NCBI GenBank assembly: GCA_013585095.1
Contig: GCA_013585095.1_3039.1
Length of the DNA: 64,000 nucleotides
Strand: one strand, 5' to 3'
Origin: a phage
Shown: positions 44,668 to 48,134 of the stretch, piece after piece
Position numbering within the stretch: the stretch's first letter is position 1
How the letters are laid out: each line of letters starts with the position of its first letter
Position numbers and translations under genes: made by a program
The notes under the pieces: model-generated
Database searches by the model: none
What the model was told of the DNA's origin: nothing
The model's input: the letters and a program-made list of their open reading frames with translations, nothing else

Positions 44668-44839
44668 GTTCACTATGGTGGTGTTTCGTTTGGTTAATTA
44701 GTATTCCATTAATTTGTTTAACATTTACTTTTGTAATGAGATTATTATGAAAATTTTGAATTCTGTACTTATTGCTTGCGCGTGGTGGGTTGCACAGGTT
44801 TCAGCGGTAGTAGTTGGTATTCACATTTATTACGAATAT

Positions 44840-44910
44840 TTTTAAAAAAGTTGTTTACAAGACTGTTCTTCCGTGGTACTATTACTCTATCAACTACGGA
44901 GGAACAGAAA
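44840..44910 (+). promoter_or_regulatory. promoter-leader cassette copy 4
   Basis: AAAAAAGTTGTTTACAAGACTGTTCTTCCGTGG-TACTAT, leader TACTCTATCAACTACGGAGGAAC..AAAATG. Confidence 0.6.
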
Positions 44911-45024
44911 ATGAAAAAGATTATTAAAGCTATATGGAATGTAGTTATAATATTAATAGTTTTGAGTATATTCCCAATCGTTTTAATGATTGATGTATTA
45001 AACGCTTACTTTGGATTTATGTGA
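44911..45024 (+). CDS. hypothetical small membrane protein (37 aa)
   Basis: ORF-track 44776 trimmed to ATG after GGAGGAACAGAAA; one hydrophobic helix. Confidence 0.4.
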   Translation: MKKIIKAIWNVVIILIVLSIFPIVLMIDVLNAYFGFM

Positions 45025-45031
45025 GGAAAAT

Positions 45032-45229
45032 ATGAAGCGTAAACGCAGTGCTTTTACATTTATTGAATGGTTTTTCGATAATATTTTTCCGGCTTTATTC
45101 ATTTTCATGCTGATTTTTGCCTTAGGTTCAGTTGTAGTTGGAATCTATTTGATGGCGGTAGTCGGAATGGATATTCATCAAAATGGTTTAAAATCCGTAG
45201 TTGAAACAATTTGGAATGGTGTAAAATAA
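45032..45229 (+). CDS. hypothetical membrane protein
   Basis: ORF-track 45011 (TTG) trimmed to ATG after GAGGAAAAT; 65 aa, two hydrophobic segments. Confidence 0.45.
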   Translation: MKRKRSAFTFIEWFFDNIFPALFIFMLIFALGSVVVGIYLMAVVGMDIHQNGLKSVVETIWNGVK

Positions 45230-45336
45230 TGAATTTACTAAACATTTGGTTTTATATTCTTATGTTTTACATTGGCGCAAATTTTCCATATTGGATGGGA
45301 TGGTCAACAACTGCATTTGGATTTTATACTCCTTGA
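45229..45336 (+). CDS. hypothetical tiny hydrophobic protein (35 aa)
   Basis: ATG overlaps previous stop (TAATG); read from sequence. Confidence 0.3.
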   Translation: MNLLNIWFYILMFYIGANFPYWMGWSTTAFGFYTP

Positions 45337-45344
45337 GGTGAATT

Positions 45345-45560
45345 ATGAAAATCTTTAAAGATGTAAAAGTTGGTGAAATTTTCTGTTTAGATAACGGTGA
45401 TCAGTTAATTCGTATTTCACCTCTTAAGAGCACTAGCGAGAAACCGACAGTTAATGCTACTTTAGCAAATAATAGTAATGAACGTTTCTGTATTGAAAAT
45501 GATACTGAAACTTACACCGTAGAAGAATTCTGGGAATTGAGCGTCGACTGCGACGAGTAA
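45345..45560 (+). CDS. hypothetical protein
   Basis: 71-aa ORF with GAGGTGAATT SD. Confidence 0.5.
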   Translation: MKIFKDVKVGEIFCLDNGDQLIRISPLKSTSEKPTVNATLANNSNERFCIENDTETYTVEEFWELSVDCDE

Positions 45561-45620
45561 TTTAATGGCCGTGTGTATTCATGCGGCCTTGGAGTAGAAA
45601 ATAATTTAGAGGAAATTAAT

Positions 45621-46079
45621 ATGAAATATATGACTGTTACTGATCTGAACAACGCAGGTGCTACTGTTATTGGTACAATCAAGGGTGGTGAATGGTTTTT
45701 GGGAACTCCGCATAAAGATATTTTATCTAAACCTGGATTTTACTTTTTAGTAAGTAAATTAGATGGTCGTCTATTTAGTAATCCATGCGTGTCTGCACGA
45801 TTTTATGTAGGTAATCAGCGTTCTAAGCAAGGATTCAGTGCAGTTCTAAGTCATATTCGTCAACGTCGGTCTCAGCTTGCACGTACTATTGCAAATAACA
45901 ATGTTCCATACACAGTATTTTATCTGCCTGCTTCTAAGATGAAACCTCTGACGACAGGATTTGGTAAAGGTCAGTTAGCTTTGGCGTTTACTCGTAATCA
46001 TCATTCTGAGTATCAAACACTTGAAGAAATGAACCGTATGTTGGCTGATAACTTTAAATTCGTTTTGCAGGCATATTAA
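45621..46079 (+). CDS. ndd: nucleoid disruption protein Ndd
   Basis: ORF-track 45573 trimmed to ATG after GAGGAAATTAAT; 152 aa; position between denB and stp/ac. Confidence 0.85.
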
Positions 46080-46159
46080 TGAGTAATTTCCACAACGAAC
46101 ACGTGATGCAGTTCTATCGTAACAATCTTAAAACCAAAGGCGTCTTCGGACGCCAGTGA
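46079..46159 (+). CDS. stp: Stp peptide (26 aa; activator of the host PrrC anticodon nuclease in T4)
   Basis: 26-codon ORF, ATG overlapping ndd stop (TAATG), sequence [26 protein letters not shown]; read from sequence. Confidence 0.65.
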
Positions 46160-46166
46160 GGAAAAT

Positions 46167-46322
46167 ATGAAATTTGTTCACGGTATAGCCTTTTTCTGTT
46201 GGTTCTTTTTATGCATCGGAACAGTAATAACTGGAGAAACTTCAGTATTTTTGCAAGCATCAGCTCAGGGCGTATTAGCGATTTTATCATTATTCGCGTA
46301 CATTGGTTCTAAAAATAGTTGA
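46167..46322 (+). CDS. small membrane protein, paralog of Ac (51 aa)
   Basis: GAGGAAAAT SD; shares FxCW..SVF.QA.AQG pattern with next ORF; read from sequence. Confidence 0.4.
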   Translation: MKFVHGIAFFCWFFLCIGTVITGETSVFLQASAQGVLAILSLFAYIGSKNS

Positions 46323-46332
46323 GGAGAATATT

Positions 46333-46491
46333 ATGAATATCGCAAAATTATTAGGAGTTATTTCATTTATTTGTTGGATAGTAGCATGTGTTTTAACTAT
46401 CTGTATTGATGCTAGCAGTGTGTTTTCGCAAGCTTTAGCTCAGGGTATGTGTGCATATTTAACATTTGTGTTGTTATCTACTAATGATTAA
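46333..46491 (+). CDS. ac: Ac-like small membrane protein (acriflavine sensitivity locus position)
   Basis: ORF-track 46303 (TTG) trimmed to ATG after GAGGAGAATATT; 52 aa hydrophobic. Confidence 0.5.
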   Translation: MNIAKLLGVISFICWIVACVLTICIDASSVFSQALAQGMCAYLTFVLLSTND

Positions 46492-46624
46492 GAAAATCTT
46501 GGGCTATTCATTAGCCCTTGCTATTTTATTAATAGCACTATATTATGGAGTAATGTTTGGATTAATTCAAGTCGTGCTTTTCATTTCTGATGTTATTATG
46601 GCACTACATTCACTAGTATGGTAA
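46484..46624 (+). CDS. hypothetical small membrane protein (46 aa)
   Basis: overlaps ac 3' end; hydrophobic; read from sequence. Confidence 0.3.
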   Translation: MIKKILGYSLALAILLIALYYGVMFGLIQVVLFISDVIMALHSLVW

Positions 46625-46628
46625 ATTT

Positions 46629-47957
46629 ATGCAACTGAATAATCGCGATTTAAAAAGTATCATTGATAATGAAGCATTGGCTTATGCTATGTACACGGTT
46701 GAAAATCGTGCTATTCCAAATATGATTGATGGATTTAAGCCAGTTCAACGATTTGTTATTGCTCGAGCTCTTGATTTGGCACGAGGAAATAAAGATAAGT
46801 TTCACAAACTCGCTTCTATTGCAGGTGGTGTAGCGGACCTTGGATATCACCATGGTGAAAACTCTGCACAAGATGCGGGGGCTTTGATGGCTAACACTTG
46901 GAATAATAACTTTCCTTTATTAGATGGTCAAGGAAACTTCGGTTCTCGTACTGTCCAAAAGGCAGCAGCTAGTCGTTATATTTTTGCTCGTGTAAGTAAA
47001 AATTTCTATAACGTATATAAAGATACTGAATATGCTCCAGTACATCAAGATAAAGAACACATTCCGCCTGCTTTCTATTTGCCTATTATTCCTACTGTTC
47101 TTCTTAATGGCGTTTCCGGTATTGCAACTGGTTATGCAACTTACATTCTTCCTCATAGTGTTTCTTCTGTTAAGAAAGCTGTACTGCAAGCTCTTCAAGG
47201 AAAGAAAGTAACTAAACCGAAGGTAGAATTCCCAGAATTTCGTGGTGAAGTCGTTGAAATTGATGGGCAATATGAAATTCGTGGAACATATAAGTTTACT
47301 TCACGAACTCAAATGCATATCACTGAGATTCCGTATAAGTATGATCGTGAAACTTATGTGAGTAAAATCTTAGACCCACTTGAAGATAAAGGCTTCATTA
47401 CATGGGATGATGCTTGTGGTGAGCATGGTTTTGGATTCAAAGTTAAATTCCGTAAAGAATATTCTTTGAGCGATAATGAAGAAGAACGCCATGCAAAAAT
47501 TATGAAAGACTTCGGGTTGATTGAGCGTCGTTCTCAGAATATTACCGTCATTAATGAGAAAGGAAAACTGCAAGTTTACGATAACGTAGTTGATTTAATT
47601 AAAGACTTTGTTGAAGTTCGTAAAACTTATGTCCAAAAACGAATTGATAACAAAATCAAAGAAACTGAGTCAGCTTTTCGTTTAGCCTTTGCCAAGGCAC
47701 ATTTCATTAAGAAAGTAATTTCAGGTGAAATTGTTGTACAAGGTAAAACTCGCAAAGAACTGACCGAAGAACTTTCTAAAATTGATATGTATTCTTCTTA
47801 TGTTGATAAACTAGTTGGAATGAATATTTTTCATATGGCTTCCGACGAAGCAAAGAAACTTGCTGAAGAAGCTAAAGCTAAAAAAGAAGAAAACGAATAT
47901 TGGAAAACTACTGATGTAGTTACAGAATACACCAAAGATTTAGAGGAAATCAAATGA
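46629..47957 (+). CDS. 52: type II DNA topoisomerase medium subunit gp52
   Basis: 442 aa; GyrA/ParC-like N-terminal region. Confidence 0.9.
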   Translation: MQLNNRDLKSIIDNEALAYAMYTVENRAIPNMIDGFKPVQRFVIARALDLARGNKDKFHKLASIAGGVADLGYHHGENSAQDAGALMANTWNNNFPLLDGQGNFGSRTVQKAAASRYIFARVSKNFYNVYKDTEYAPVHQDKEHIPPAFYLPIIPTVLLNGVSGIATGYATYILPHSVSSVKKAVLQALQGKKVTKPKVEFPEFRGEVVEIDGQYEIRGTYKFTSRTQMHITEIPYKYDRETYVSKILDPLEDKGFITWDDACGEHGFGFKVKFRKEYSLSDNEEERHAKIMKDFGLIERRSQNITVINEKGKLQVYDNVVDLIKDFVEVRKTYVQKRIDNKIKETESAFRLAFAKAHFIKKVISGEIVVQGKTRKELTEELSKIDMYSSYVDKLVGMNIFHMASDEAKKLAEEAKAKKEENEYWKTTDVVTEYTKDLEEIK

Positions 47958-48103: not shown

Positions 48104-48108
48104 TTTTA

Positions 48109-48134
48109 GGGAGAGCCTCGGCTCTCCCTTTTTT
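48109..48134 (+). terminator. rho-independent terminator
   Basis: GGGAGAGC-CTCG-GCTCTCCC then TTTTTT. Confidence 0.85.

Follow-up and report, generated by a model that had tools for sequence, protein, structure and literature searches.

Four short plus-strand open reading frames occupy positions 46079-46624 of the window (the whole stretch of 64,000 nucleotides of phage DNA), between ndd and the topoisomerase gene 52. The resulting cluster, ndd-stp-ac-52.1-52, lies entirely on the plus strand in an early-gene segment of a T4-like phage (Table 1). The ORF list and the sequence bore out the sizes given by an earlier sequence-only reading (26, 51, 52 and 46 aa) as well as its description of the frames as overlapping or abutting. 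The DNA is 99.7% identical to that of Aplg8, for which the products are annotated as gp52.1 and, twice, as 'acridine resistance protein', and the genes are nearly identical to annotated T4T genes. The gene cluster is ordinary and its annotations are already in GenBank. The modest oddity of the locus is that both known versions of Ac stand side by side here, whereas T4 has one. It is considered probable that the region is a Tequatrovirus early-gene segment with a tandem of diverged Ac-family genes, here termed ac1 and ac2, and not a single one, inserted in the slot that separates stp from 52.1.

Table 1. Genes and sequence features between ndd and gene 52 (positions in the window; a dot marks a feature without strand)
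Feature	Position	Strand	Description and support
ndd (nucleoid disruption protein)	45621..46079	+	PF06591 Phage_T4_Ndd, 7e-95; phrog_1102; named ndd in Aplg8 and T4T
15-nt direct repeat ATATTAATGAGTAAT	46073..46087	+	ndd/stp junction; partner ATATTATGGAGTAAT at 46540-46554 inside 52.1; 13/15 identical
stp	46079..46159	+	26 aa; PF08133; phrog_6763
Hairpin GGCGUC-UUCG-GACGCC	46139..46154	+	inverted repeat inside the stp 3' end, just upstream of the ac1 Shine-Dalgarno sequence
166-bp segment absent from T4	46165..46330	.	T4T pairwise, multi-phage and unit alignments
ac1	46167..46322	+	51 aa; Ac family, widespread 'TGETSV' type; phrog_2501, 4.9e-26
Direct-repeat core of the paralogy	46245..46291	+	encodes SVF.QA.AQG...; partner 46420-46466; 47 nt, 72% identity, spacing 175
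ac2	46333..46491	+	52 aa from its ATG; T4 ac ortholog; phrog_2501, 3.7e-25, positions 1-50 of 50
52.1	46484..46624	+	46 aa from its ATG, hydrophobic; PF24129 DUF7396, 1.3e-22; phrog_3595
Gene 52 (DNA topoisomerase II medium subunit)	46629..47957	+	ORF list; Aplg8 and T4T annotation

The 26-codon ORF that follows ndd had been recognized as Stp, and this assignment was verified by matches to PF08133 (Nuclease_act; 2e-21, 75.3 bits against a cut-off of 25, positions 1-26 of 26) and phrog_6763 (4.4e-21) and by identity with T4T Stp at all 26 residues. The gene also shares with T4 stp its position and the overlap of its ATG with the ndd stop codon (TAATG), so that there is no detectable difference between the two. 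Among 10 phages with two ac copies, stp carries 4 synonymous and 0 nonsynonymous changes, and its pairwise dN/dS ranges from 0 to 0.37. Stp is an inhibitor of type Ic restriction and the trigger of the PrrC anticodon nuclease: by binding to complexes of type Ic enzymes (EcoprrI, EcoR124I), the soluble 26-residue peptide prevents restriction of DNA, which in prr+ hosts unmasks the tRNA-Lys anticodon nuclease activity of PrrC (PMC3014915). Loss-of-function mutations cluster in the conserved N-terminal residues 4-14 (PMC3014915), a region that is intact here, as the sequence equals that of T4 Stp. Identity with the characterized T4 peptide suggests that Stp of this phage would likewise inhibit type Ic restriction and activate PrrC. 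The hairpin at the 3' end of stp is the sole stable element in the centroid fold and is kept in T4T, RB51, RPN226, REP4 and UPEC01. Nevertheless, the hairpin region folds no better overall than shuffled sequence (z = -1.5) and no RNA structure is therefore claimed.

At the other end of the cluster, 52.1 (named as such in T4T, RB51 and JS98) matches PF24129 over its entire length (80.1 bits against a cut-off of 27, positions 1-46 of 46). It is without a Shine-Dalgarno sequence and overlaps ac2 by 8 nt (ATGATTAA), an overlap through which it is predicted to be translationally coupled to ac2; gene 52 starts 4 nt past the 52.1 stop codon. T4T gp52.1 is identical at 44 of 46 residues, the other two being conservative substitutions, and in T4 both the position and the coupling to ac are the same as here. 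Across genera, dN/dS of 52.1 lies between 0.06 and 0.4 for most pairs. A relationship of this third hydrophobic ORF to Ac was rejected (hhalign probability 0.2), and 52.1 is regarded as a separate, conserved membrane peptide.

The first two hydrophobic ORFs had been interpreted as a duplication of an ac-like membrane-peptide gene. This paralogy was corroborated by BLASTP (17 of 40 identities, ungapped, E 6e-10) and by end-to-end matches of both proteins to phrog_2501 at about 1e-25 (positions 1-50 of 50 in each case). The Ac family corresponds to Pfam PF26944 (Phage_T4_Ac) and phrog_2501, and precomputed PF26944 matches exist on close homologs of both ac1 and ac2. A Pfam scan of ac1 and ac2 gave no match, but the release scanned was without the PF26944 model and the result does not amount to an absence; a search of NCBIfam returned nothing meaningful. 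The shared pattern proposed earlier, F.CW...C..(T/I)..(E/D)(T/A)SVF.QA.AQG, matches neither protein with its literal spacing, but the ungapped form F.CW...C..T......SVF.QA.AQG matches both. The hydropathy profiles of the two proteins (GRAVY 1.15 for ac1 and 1.42 for ac2) fit two hydrophobic helices with a short polar loop. For ac1, AlphaFold2 modelled such a hairpin with helices at residues 2-22 and 25-49 (pLDDT 80), and the same two-helix layout was obtained for T4 Ac with ESMFold (bioRxiv 10.1101/2025.06.30.662393).

The second copy is the ortholog of T4 ac, a gene established genetically through knockouts and point mutants (bioRxiv 10.1101/2025.06.30.662393). It equals T4T Ac with one inserted Thr near the C-terminus, the genes otherwise showing 4 synonymous and 0 nonsynonymous differences (pairwise dN/dS = 0). 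Like T4 ac, it lies directly upstream of 52.1, which it overlaps by 8 nt, in the interval that follows stp; T4 has this single copy where the phage here has two. A strong Shine-Dalgarno sequence, GAGGAG at 46321-46326, overlaps the ac1 stop codon. The first copy is about 39-43% identical to T4 Ac, with which it shares the family, length, two-helix layout and the W / T / SV.Q...QG motif. It differs in carrying a TGETSV loop where T4 Ac has CIDASS, and in ending on KNS followed by a separate spacer, whereas T4 Ac overlaps 52.1. The ac1 Shine-Dalgarno sequence is also strong (GAGGAAAATATG), its GAGG at 46158-46161 overlapping the stp stop codon. The 'ac' genes of RB51, RB33 and RB68, which represent the TGETSV-type Ac of some Tequatroviruses and of Mosig-, Dhaka-, Gapriver- and Jiaodaviruses, are single-copy; their type is 71-88% identical to ac1 at the protein level and has the Shine-Dalgarno sequence and the stp junction in common with it. 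These genes overlap 52.1 and end on ...KND; here, in contrast, a second ac gene follows, and the last codon and stop of ac1 are provided by a copy of the stp 3' end.

The region has a G+C content of 34%, short ORFs are common in every frame and some annotators skip the hydrophobic ORFs of the cluster, all of which would suit a reading of these ORFs as untranslated chance frames in AT-rich DNA. This reading is judged highly improbable. Frames, lengths and motifs are kept across five genera of Tevenvirinae with an excess of synonymous changes, dedicated family models exist, and T4 ac is known from knockouts and point mutants. The earlier proposal had named missing translation together with a lack of frame conservation in related phages as what would speak against it; all four frames are kept, with dN/dS below 1, and the proposal thus stands unrefuted. 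For a competing ORF on the minus strand (46114-46290), neither a family match nor any other support was seen. The further statement that such short peptides are usually missed by gene callers held in part. The top 40 matches include 35 annotated records, of which 12 label both ac copies 'acridine resistance' but only 4 give stp a name; 52.1 is frequently left unannotated. Among the papers searched there were no relevant reports of ribosome profiling or small-protein detection in T4, nor ribosome-profiling or proteomic data for ac1 or 52.1. Searches for regulatory elements gave no assignment within the cluster: the count of sigma-70-like promoters (24) does not exceed the expectation from shuffled sequences (18.5 ± 4.5), and Rfam returned for positions 45400-46800 no known RNA element, its only match being a chance-level one to TarB (20 bits against a gathering score of 80). 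The terminator scan placed the first strong terminator-like hairpin downstream at 48108-48129.

Analysis of matching phage records allowed us to place the two copies within the Ac family. The position of ac between stp (or ndd) and 52.1/52 is the same in the T4-like phages examined, which cover five genera. The TGETSV type was found in 173 records from Tequatro-, Mosig-, Dhaka-, Gapriver- and Jiaodavirus and is the sole ac of RB51-like phages and of Mosig-, Dhaka-, Gapriver- and Jiaodaviruses; in RB51, RB33 and related records it carries the name 'ac'. The T4 type was found in 463 records, nearly all with at least 90% identity and 330 with at least 99%. By this distribution, the canonical T4 ac is the divergent type and is confined to phages close to T4. 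About 51 of the 751 matching records (approximately 7%) contain both types, with Aplg8, ECML-134 and phage 132 as examples of two-copy phages, and ac1 itself is present at 95% identity or more in 48 phage records. As each copy resembles the single-copy gene of another phage, the tandem is regarded as a polymorphic arrangement. A scan of IMG/VR with the Ac alignment yielded only 6 loci.

The sequences around the two copies bear on how the tandem arose. T4T is without ac1, and in the pairwise alignment this absence falls within the 166-bp gap, the ends of which are ambiguous by a few nt owing to a TATGAA repeated at both. In front of ac2, the spacer (AGTTGAGGAGAAT) duplicates the 3' end of stp together with the Shine-Dalgarno sequence found there (CAGTGAGGAAAAT). 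A 166-bp repeat unit is thereby defined, which extends from this segment to ac codon 50. In addition, the 15-nt direct repeat shared by the ndd/stp junction and 52.1 might provide the microhomology for an unequal crossover that involves the small-gene unit as a whole. In JS98 a 52.1 fragment is fused to a stp fragment exactly at the GAGTAAT motif of this repeat, and in both JS98 and REP4 remnants of 52.1 and stp lie at the junctions of extra cassettes; one of the additional genes, orfX of REP4, was tried as an Ac paralog and rejected (hhalign probability 0.3). Divergence between ac1 and ac2 (dN approximately 0.6, dS approximately 1.1) far exceeds that between either copy and its single-copy counterpart (dS 0.13-0.32), and these values indicate that the pair is not a recent local duplication. 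Most likely, the tandem pair arose by unequal recombination in the small-gene slot between stp and 52.1. The proposed route is an exchange between phages with two allelic forms of Ac, after which the pair would have persisted as a polymorphism in about 7% of the matching sequenced phage records.

The same divergence values count in favour of another reading, in which the two-copy state is ancestral to Tequatrovirus. Under it, an old tandem duplication would have diverged, and deletions spanning from one repeated Shine-Dalgarno/ATG or AAT/stop motif to the next would later have removed ac1 from T4-like and ac2 from RB51-like phages. The T4 Shine-Dalgarno spacer agrees with such a history in being that of ac1 (GAGGAAAATATG) and not that of ac2 (GAGGAGAATATTATG), as a deletion between units would leave it. 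However, in every other genus examined 52.1 is abutted by just one gene of the TGETSV type. A metagenomic contig (L027), moreover, has one ac copy whose product is intermediate between the types, and this points to divergence of the T4 type as an allele rather than as an additional copy. Unequal crossover between different phage lineages does happen at this locus, as shown by the scars in JS98 and REP4. An ancestral duplication is accordingly regarded as a possible but rather doubtful origin, even though unequal crossover between alleles and ancestral duplication with reciprocal loss may both fit the data. Unequal recombination in this slot would resemble the hyperplastic regions of T4-type genomes, which undergo PeSL-mediated cassette shuffling (PMC2839356, PMC4122927). 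In both cases, short conserved flanks allow a single locus to gain, lose and exchange small non-essential ORFs, but the flanks at the present locus are translation-initiation and overlap motifs (GAGGAAAATATG, AATGATTAAG, GAGTAAT), while hyperplastic cassettes are flanked by an early promoter plus stem-loop.

If the pair is a product of such recombination, ac1 could be a redundant passenger: a tiny and harmless by-product with no role beyond that of ac2, perhaps slowly decaying. Approximately 410 of the 463 phages with a T4-type ac do without ac1, and RB51-like phages do without ac2, so a single copy suffices. The ac gene is moreover non-essential and its loss even advantageous in the presence of acridines (bioRxiv 10.1101/2025.06.30.662393), and the T2 record PV648363 has an ac with a nonsense mutation. 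While dN/dS for pairs of ac1-type genes ranges from 0.11 to 0.67, the close comparisons, based on fewer than 11 substitutions, gave 0.67 for the pair with T4_ev151 and 0.42 among the two-copy phages. These moderately low values from few substitutions may reflect relaxed constraint on a redundant copy. On the other hand, ac1 is intact and its Shine-Dalgarno sequence unchanged in all 11 two-copy phages examined, and no frameshift or nonsense allele of ac1 was seen; 40 records match it with at least 99% identity, and the family motif is fully kept. We therefore think it unlikely that ac1 is a mere passenger, and it would be expressed and active as an Ac protein.

In older work, the acridine phenotype associated with ac was read as increased uptake. 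T4 Ac sensitizes infected cells to acridines and its loss leads to resistance, and the proposal that it does so by blocking AcrAB-TolC is the hypothesis of one 2025 preprint (bioRxiv 10.1101/2025.06.30.662393; further literature on Ac: PMC13250531). The Ac form with the additional Thr, as in phage PP01, was reported to keep acriflavine sensitivity, while the G38R substitution in T4 Ac causes acriflavine resistance (bioRxiv 10.1101/2025.06.30.662393); G38 is the conserved G of the AQG motif common to ac1 and ac2. It is thus probable that ac2 confers acridine sensitivity in the present phage as well. With approximately 50 residues and two predicted transmembrane helices, ac2 would, during early infection, insert into the inner membrane of the host and raise the intracellular acridine level, according to the current hypothesis by interfering with AcrAB-TolC efflux. 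The ac1 product would act similarly, via the common membrane-embedded face W..T / SV..Q...QG..A, possibly with a preference for another variant of the host target. The suggestion that these membrane peptides modulate transporters agrees with the preprint hypothesis (bioRxiv 10.1101/2025.06.30.662393), but the alternative link to anticodon-nuclease defence is known for Stp alone and not for the hydrophobic ORFs.

Proteins of the AcrZ type, which bind RND pumps, resemble Ac in size (approximately 50 aa) and inner-membrane location and, by the preprint hypothesis, in a proposed action on AcrAB-TolC. AcrZ has one helix, while Ac has two predicted helices. When profiles built from the Ac and the 52.1 alignment were searched against the chains of the PDB, pump complexes included, 0 matches were obtained at E values up to 10, and a sequence relationship of Ac or 52.1 to AcrZ or another solved membrane peptide was rejected on this basis. 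This result weakens the view of Ac as an AcrZ homolog, but not the view that it acts on the pump. A bolder idea, to which only a slim chance is given, is that the stp/52.1 slot serves as a swap site for small two-helix inner-membrane effectors (TGETSV-type Ac, T4-type Ac and the unrelated orfX of REP4, JS98 and L027), each tuned to a different host membrane target or variant, for example to different RND pumps or hosts, so that a phage stacking two of them, like the present one, would control envelope transport of the host more broadly or more strongly. A heteromer with a new specificity might even form, should the two Ac types pair via the conserved Gln/Gly face.

The region confirms the T4-like phage origin of the window, and both Stp and the Ac paralogy had been recognized correctly from sequence alone. 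Its importance is small beyond housekeeping. For the family, the comparison indicates that the textbook ac of T4 is an atypical member, and that the TGETSV type is the common form among Tevenvirinae. Phages that naturally carry both forms provide ready material for asking how Ac benefits the phage. If Ac does inhibit a multidrug efflux pump, the two types would represent natural inhibitors of approximately 50 residues with two diverged specificities, which would be of some applied interest.

Five genes are packed head to tail on the plus strand of the window ahead of gene 52 (sequence and ORF list), and the ORF coordinates and sizes put forward by the sequence-only reading, namely a Stp peptide followed by three small hydrophobic proteins, proved right. 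For the 26-aa product a full-length match to Pfam PF08133 (anticodon nuclease activator; 2e-21) and one to phrog_6763 were obtained, and its identity to Stp of the T4 record used for comparison (T4T) bears out the proposed assignment. The 46-aa product is identified as T4 gene 52.1 by its matches to PF24129 (DUF7396; 1.3e-22) and phrog_3595. The two ORFs in between, ac1 and ac2, match phrog_2501 end to end (4.9e-26 and 3.7e-25), in agreement with their reading as ac-like membrane peptides; Pfam names this family PF26944 Phage_T4_Ac. Identity over the 1128 bp of the region amounts to 99.9% with Escherichia phage 132 and 99.7% with phage Aplg8, which together with the family matches places the window in a Tequatrovirus. 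In Aplg8 both ac ORFs are annotated as 'acridine resistance protein' and the third ORF as gp52.1. The locus is a known gene cluster, and its four small genes are already present in public annotation.

Genes from ndd to gene 52 in the window
Feature	Coordinates	Strand	Basis or remark
ndd	45621-46079	+	ORF list
stp, 26 codons	46079-46159	+	ATG overlaps ndd stop (TAATG)
ac1, 51 codons	46167-46322	+	ORF list
ac2, 52 codons	46333-46491	+	ORF list
gene 52.1, 46 codons	46484-46624	+	8-nt overlap with ac2 (ATGATTAA)
gene 52	from 46629	+	ORF list

Strong Shine-Dalgarno sequences were found for ac1 (GAGG, 46158-46161, overlapping the stp stop codon) and ac2 (GAGGAG, 46321-46326, overlapping the ac1 stop codon). 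Both stp and 52.1 are devoid of such a sequence and appear to be translationally coupled. A GGCGUC-UUCG-GACGCC tetraloop hairpin lies in the last stp codons (46139-46154), directly 5' of the ac1 Shine-Dalgarno sequence, and is kept in all related phages examined but one, the T2 record PV648363, in which the stp 3' end is replaced (…NLKNFGILGFKK) and the hairpin is missing. Within the 52.1 coding sequence (46501-46517) lies GGGCTATTCATTAGCCC, a terminator-like hairpin with a T-rich run after it; the motif is near-palindromic and scores on both strands. Upstream of ndd (44776-45560) there is a run of very small hydrophobic ORFs, predicted membrane peptides, as is usual for this region, annotated ndd.1-ndd.6 in T4 and Aplg8.

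The proposed paralogy of the first two hydrophobic ORFs is upheld by an ungapped protein alignment with 43% identity over 40 residues (E 6e-10), by the common phrog_2501 match and by a DNA core of 47 nt that is 72% identical. The common motif F.CW...C..T......SVF.QA.AQG fits both proteins, but the pattern as originally written fits neither, its spacing being off. A relationship of 52.1 to Ac was ruled out (hhalign probability 0.2). Alignment with T4T leaves a clean 166-bp gap that corresponds exactly to ac1, with near-identity on either side, and the second ORF, ac2, is recognized as the T4 ac gene; T4 lacks ac1, whereas the phage of the window carries both. Apart from one inserted Thr, ac2 and T4 Ac are identical in protein sequence (4 synonymous and 0 nonsynonymous differences). 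PP01 also has the +Thr form of Ac and is reported to have kept acriflavine sensitivity (bioRxiv 10.1101/2025.06.30.662393).

Searches with tblastn revealed two types of Ac with different distributions. The ac1 query detected 173 phage records, 48 of them at 95% identity or more, with copies in RB51, RB33, Shfl2 and wV7 at approximately 70-88% and more distant ones in Mosigvirus, Dhakavirus, Gaprivervirus and Klebsiella Jiaodaviruses. The ac2 query detected 463 records, nearly all at 90% identity or more and all T4-close phages of Escherichia, Shigella, Yersinia, Salmonella and similar hosts. In RB51 an ac1-type gene is the only ac and overlaps 52.1 exactly like T4 ac. The two-copy state was found in only 51 of the 751 records matching the 550-bp region (coverage of at least 80%). 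As the loop motif TGETSV (or TGE.SV) is common to ac1 and all members outside the T4-close group, while T4 Ac has CIDASSVF at this position, ac1 represents the common form and the textbook T4 ac the divergent one; the TGETSV form is probably ancestral. The family is tiny, with 29 clusters at 90% identity among 5.8 billion proteins and 12 clusters at 50% identity among 1.84 billion representatives, and all members with a named or examined source have a T4-like phage context.

The AlphaFold2 model of ac1, built with a 27-sequence family alignment, contains helices at residues 2-22 and 25-49 (mean pLDDT 80), and the hydropathy of both proteins (GRAVY 1.15 for ac1, 1.42 for ac2) is consistent with a two-span hairpin. 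Lys residues close to both termini and an acidic loop suggest an N-in/C-in topology for ac1. In ac1, W12, T19, S26, V27, Q30, Q34, G35 and A38 are invariant or nearly so. The G38R exchange reported to abolish T4 Ac function (bioRxiv 10.1101/2025.06.30.662393) affects the conserved AQG glycine. A profile search of all PDB chains yielded no solved structure with sequence likeness to Ac or 52.1.

The same reading frames, lengths and motifs recur in five Tevenvirinae genera, with dN/dS values (Nei-Gojobori) below 1: the ac1 type gives 0.11-0.67, ac2 gives 0, stp 0-0.37 and 52.1 mostly 0.06-0.4. All four genes are intact in each of 11 two-copy phages. The minimal changes in ac1 among these phages are 6 nonsynonymous and 4 synonymous (ratio 0.42), the nonsynonymous ones stemming for the most part from an N-terminal mosaic segment in T4_ev151. 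Both ac (the ac2 counterpart), by deletions and point mutants (bioRxiv 10.1101/2025.06.30.662393), and stp (PMC3014915) are genetically defined. A literature search on T4 ribosome profiling and small proteins turned up nothing on the translation of ac1 or 52.1. Variant alleles were observed elsewhere. The T4-type ac of T2 record PV648363 (L007, ~785-946) has a nonsense codon 11 (TCA to TAA) and is probably an acridine-resistant or degenerate allele of laboratory origin. In the Gaprivervirus UPEC01 (L006, 729-887), stp is annotated at 52 aa with a hydrophobic N-terminal extension, which may reflect the annotator's choice of an upstream in-frame start or else a genuine fusion resembling a signal peptide. 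In an 81-aa metagenomic protein (P0022), Stp and Ac (PF08133 + PF26944) are fused in frame as a result of a changed stp 3' end; the fusion may be due to a sequencing or assembly indel or be a real read-through variant.

The 26-residue Stp is both required and by itself sufficient for activation of the PrrC tRNA-Lys anticodon nuclease, acts through inhibition of EcoprrI, the type Ic restriction enzyme associated with PrrC, also inhibits EcoR124I and has its functional residues at positions 4-14 (PMC3014915). Because its sequence is identical to T4 Stp, the window Stp would with near certainty share these PrrC-activating and type Ic-inhibiting functions. T4 ac deletions and point mutants are acriflavine-resistant, and plasmid-borne Ac sensitizes E. 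coli to acriflavine and ampicillin; insertion into the membrane and blocking of AcrAB-TolC were proposed by the authors, and increased uptake in an older proposal (bioRxiv 10.1101/2025.06.30.662393; Ac work is also cited in PMC13250531). Judged by orthology, ac2 should act like T4 ac. Family membership suggests the same action for ac1, perhaps with another target preference.

The junctions provide clues to the origin of the tandem. The spacer 5' of ac2 (AGTTGAGGAGAATATTATG) can be recognized as a duplicate of the stp 3' end and Shine-Dalgarno sequence (CAGTGAGGAAAATATG) found 5' of ac1 and T4 ac, and the ac1 3' end reads ...AAAAAT-AGT-TGA versus ...AAAAAT-GAT-TAA in single-copy ac, where it overlaps 52.1; the repeat unit therefore comprises ~166 bp from the last stp bases to ac codon 50. 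Some phages carry between stp/ndd and ac a third kind of ~52-aa two-helix ORF, orfX (MIILIFIELIMAIVCSVCFFLGVWTPGP...), for which hhalign detected no homology with Ac (probability 0.3). In REP4 (L010), the order is stp, orfX (710-871; 53 aa, two-helix, unrelated to Ac), 14 nt left over from the start of 52.1, a TGETSV-type ac and 52.1. In JS98 (L008), stp and ac are followed by a frameshifted 5' fragment of 52.1, a start-less T4-type stp, orfX and intact 52.1, the fragment being joined to the stp copy at GAGTAAT (scar ~641-941); the record leaves the intervening 300 nt without annotation. A 15-mer direct repeat with GAGTAAT (13 of 15 positions identical) spans the ndd-stop/stp-start junction of the window (46073-46087) and recurs within 52.1 (46540-46554). 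As it matches the JS98 junction motif, it is a candidate site for unequal crossover involving the small-gene unit as a whole. The metagenomic contig L027 has orfX (~744-902) and a single Ac intermediate between the two types (TGES loop, CAYLTF tail). An old ac duplication with subsequent reciprocal losses is possible but less likely: the Shine-Dalgarno spacer of T4 equals that 5' of ac1, as expected from deletion between units, but the REP4 and JS98 scars and the L027 intermediate are counted for unequal recombination instead. Taken together with the spacer copy and the 15-mer, they make unequal recombination between the differing alleles of co-infecting phages the favoured origin. Hyperplastic regions of T4-type phages are known to shuffle cassettes by way of short conserved flanks (PMC2839356, PMC4122927); at the ac locus, in contrast, the flanks identified are translation signals and not PeSL elements.

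The observation of a Stp gene followed by duplicated ac-like genes is thus confirmed and its interpretation was essentially right. What is new is only mildly so: the division of the Ac family into two types, the minority status of the tandem and the recombination scars that would explain it.
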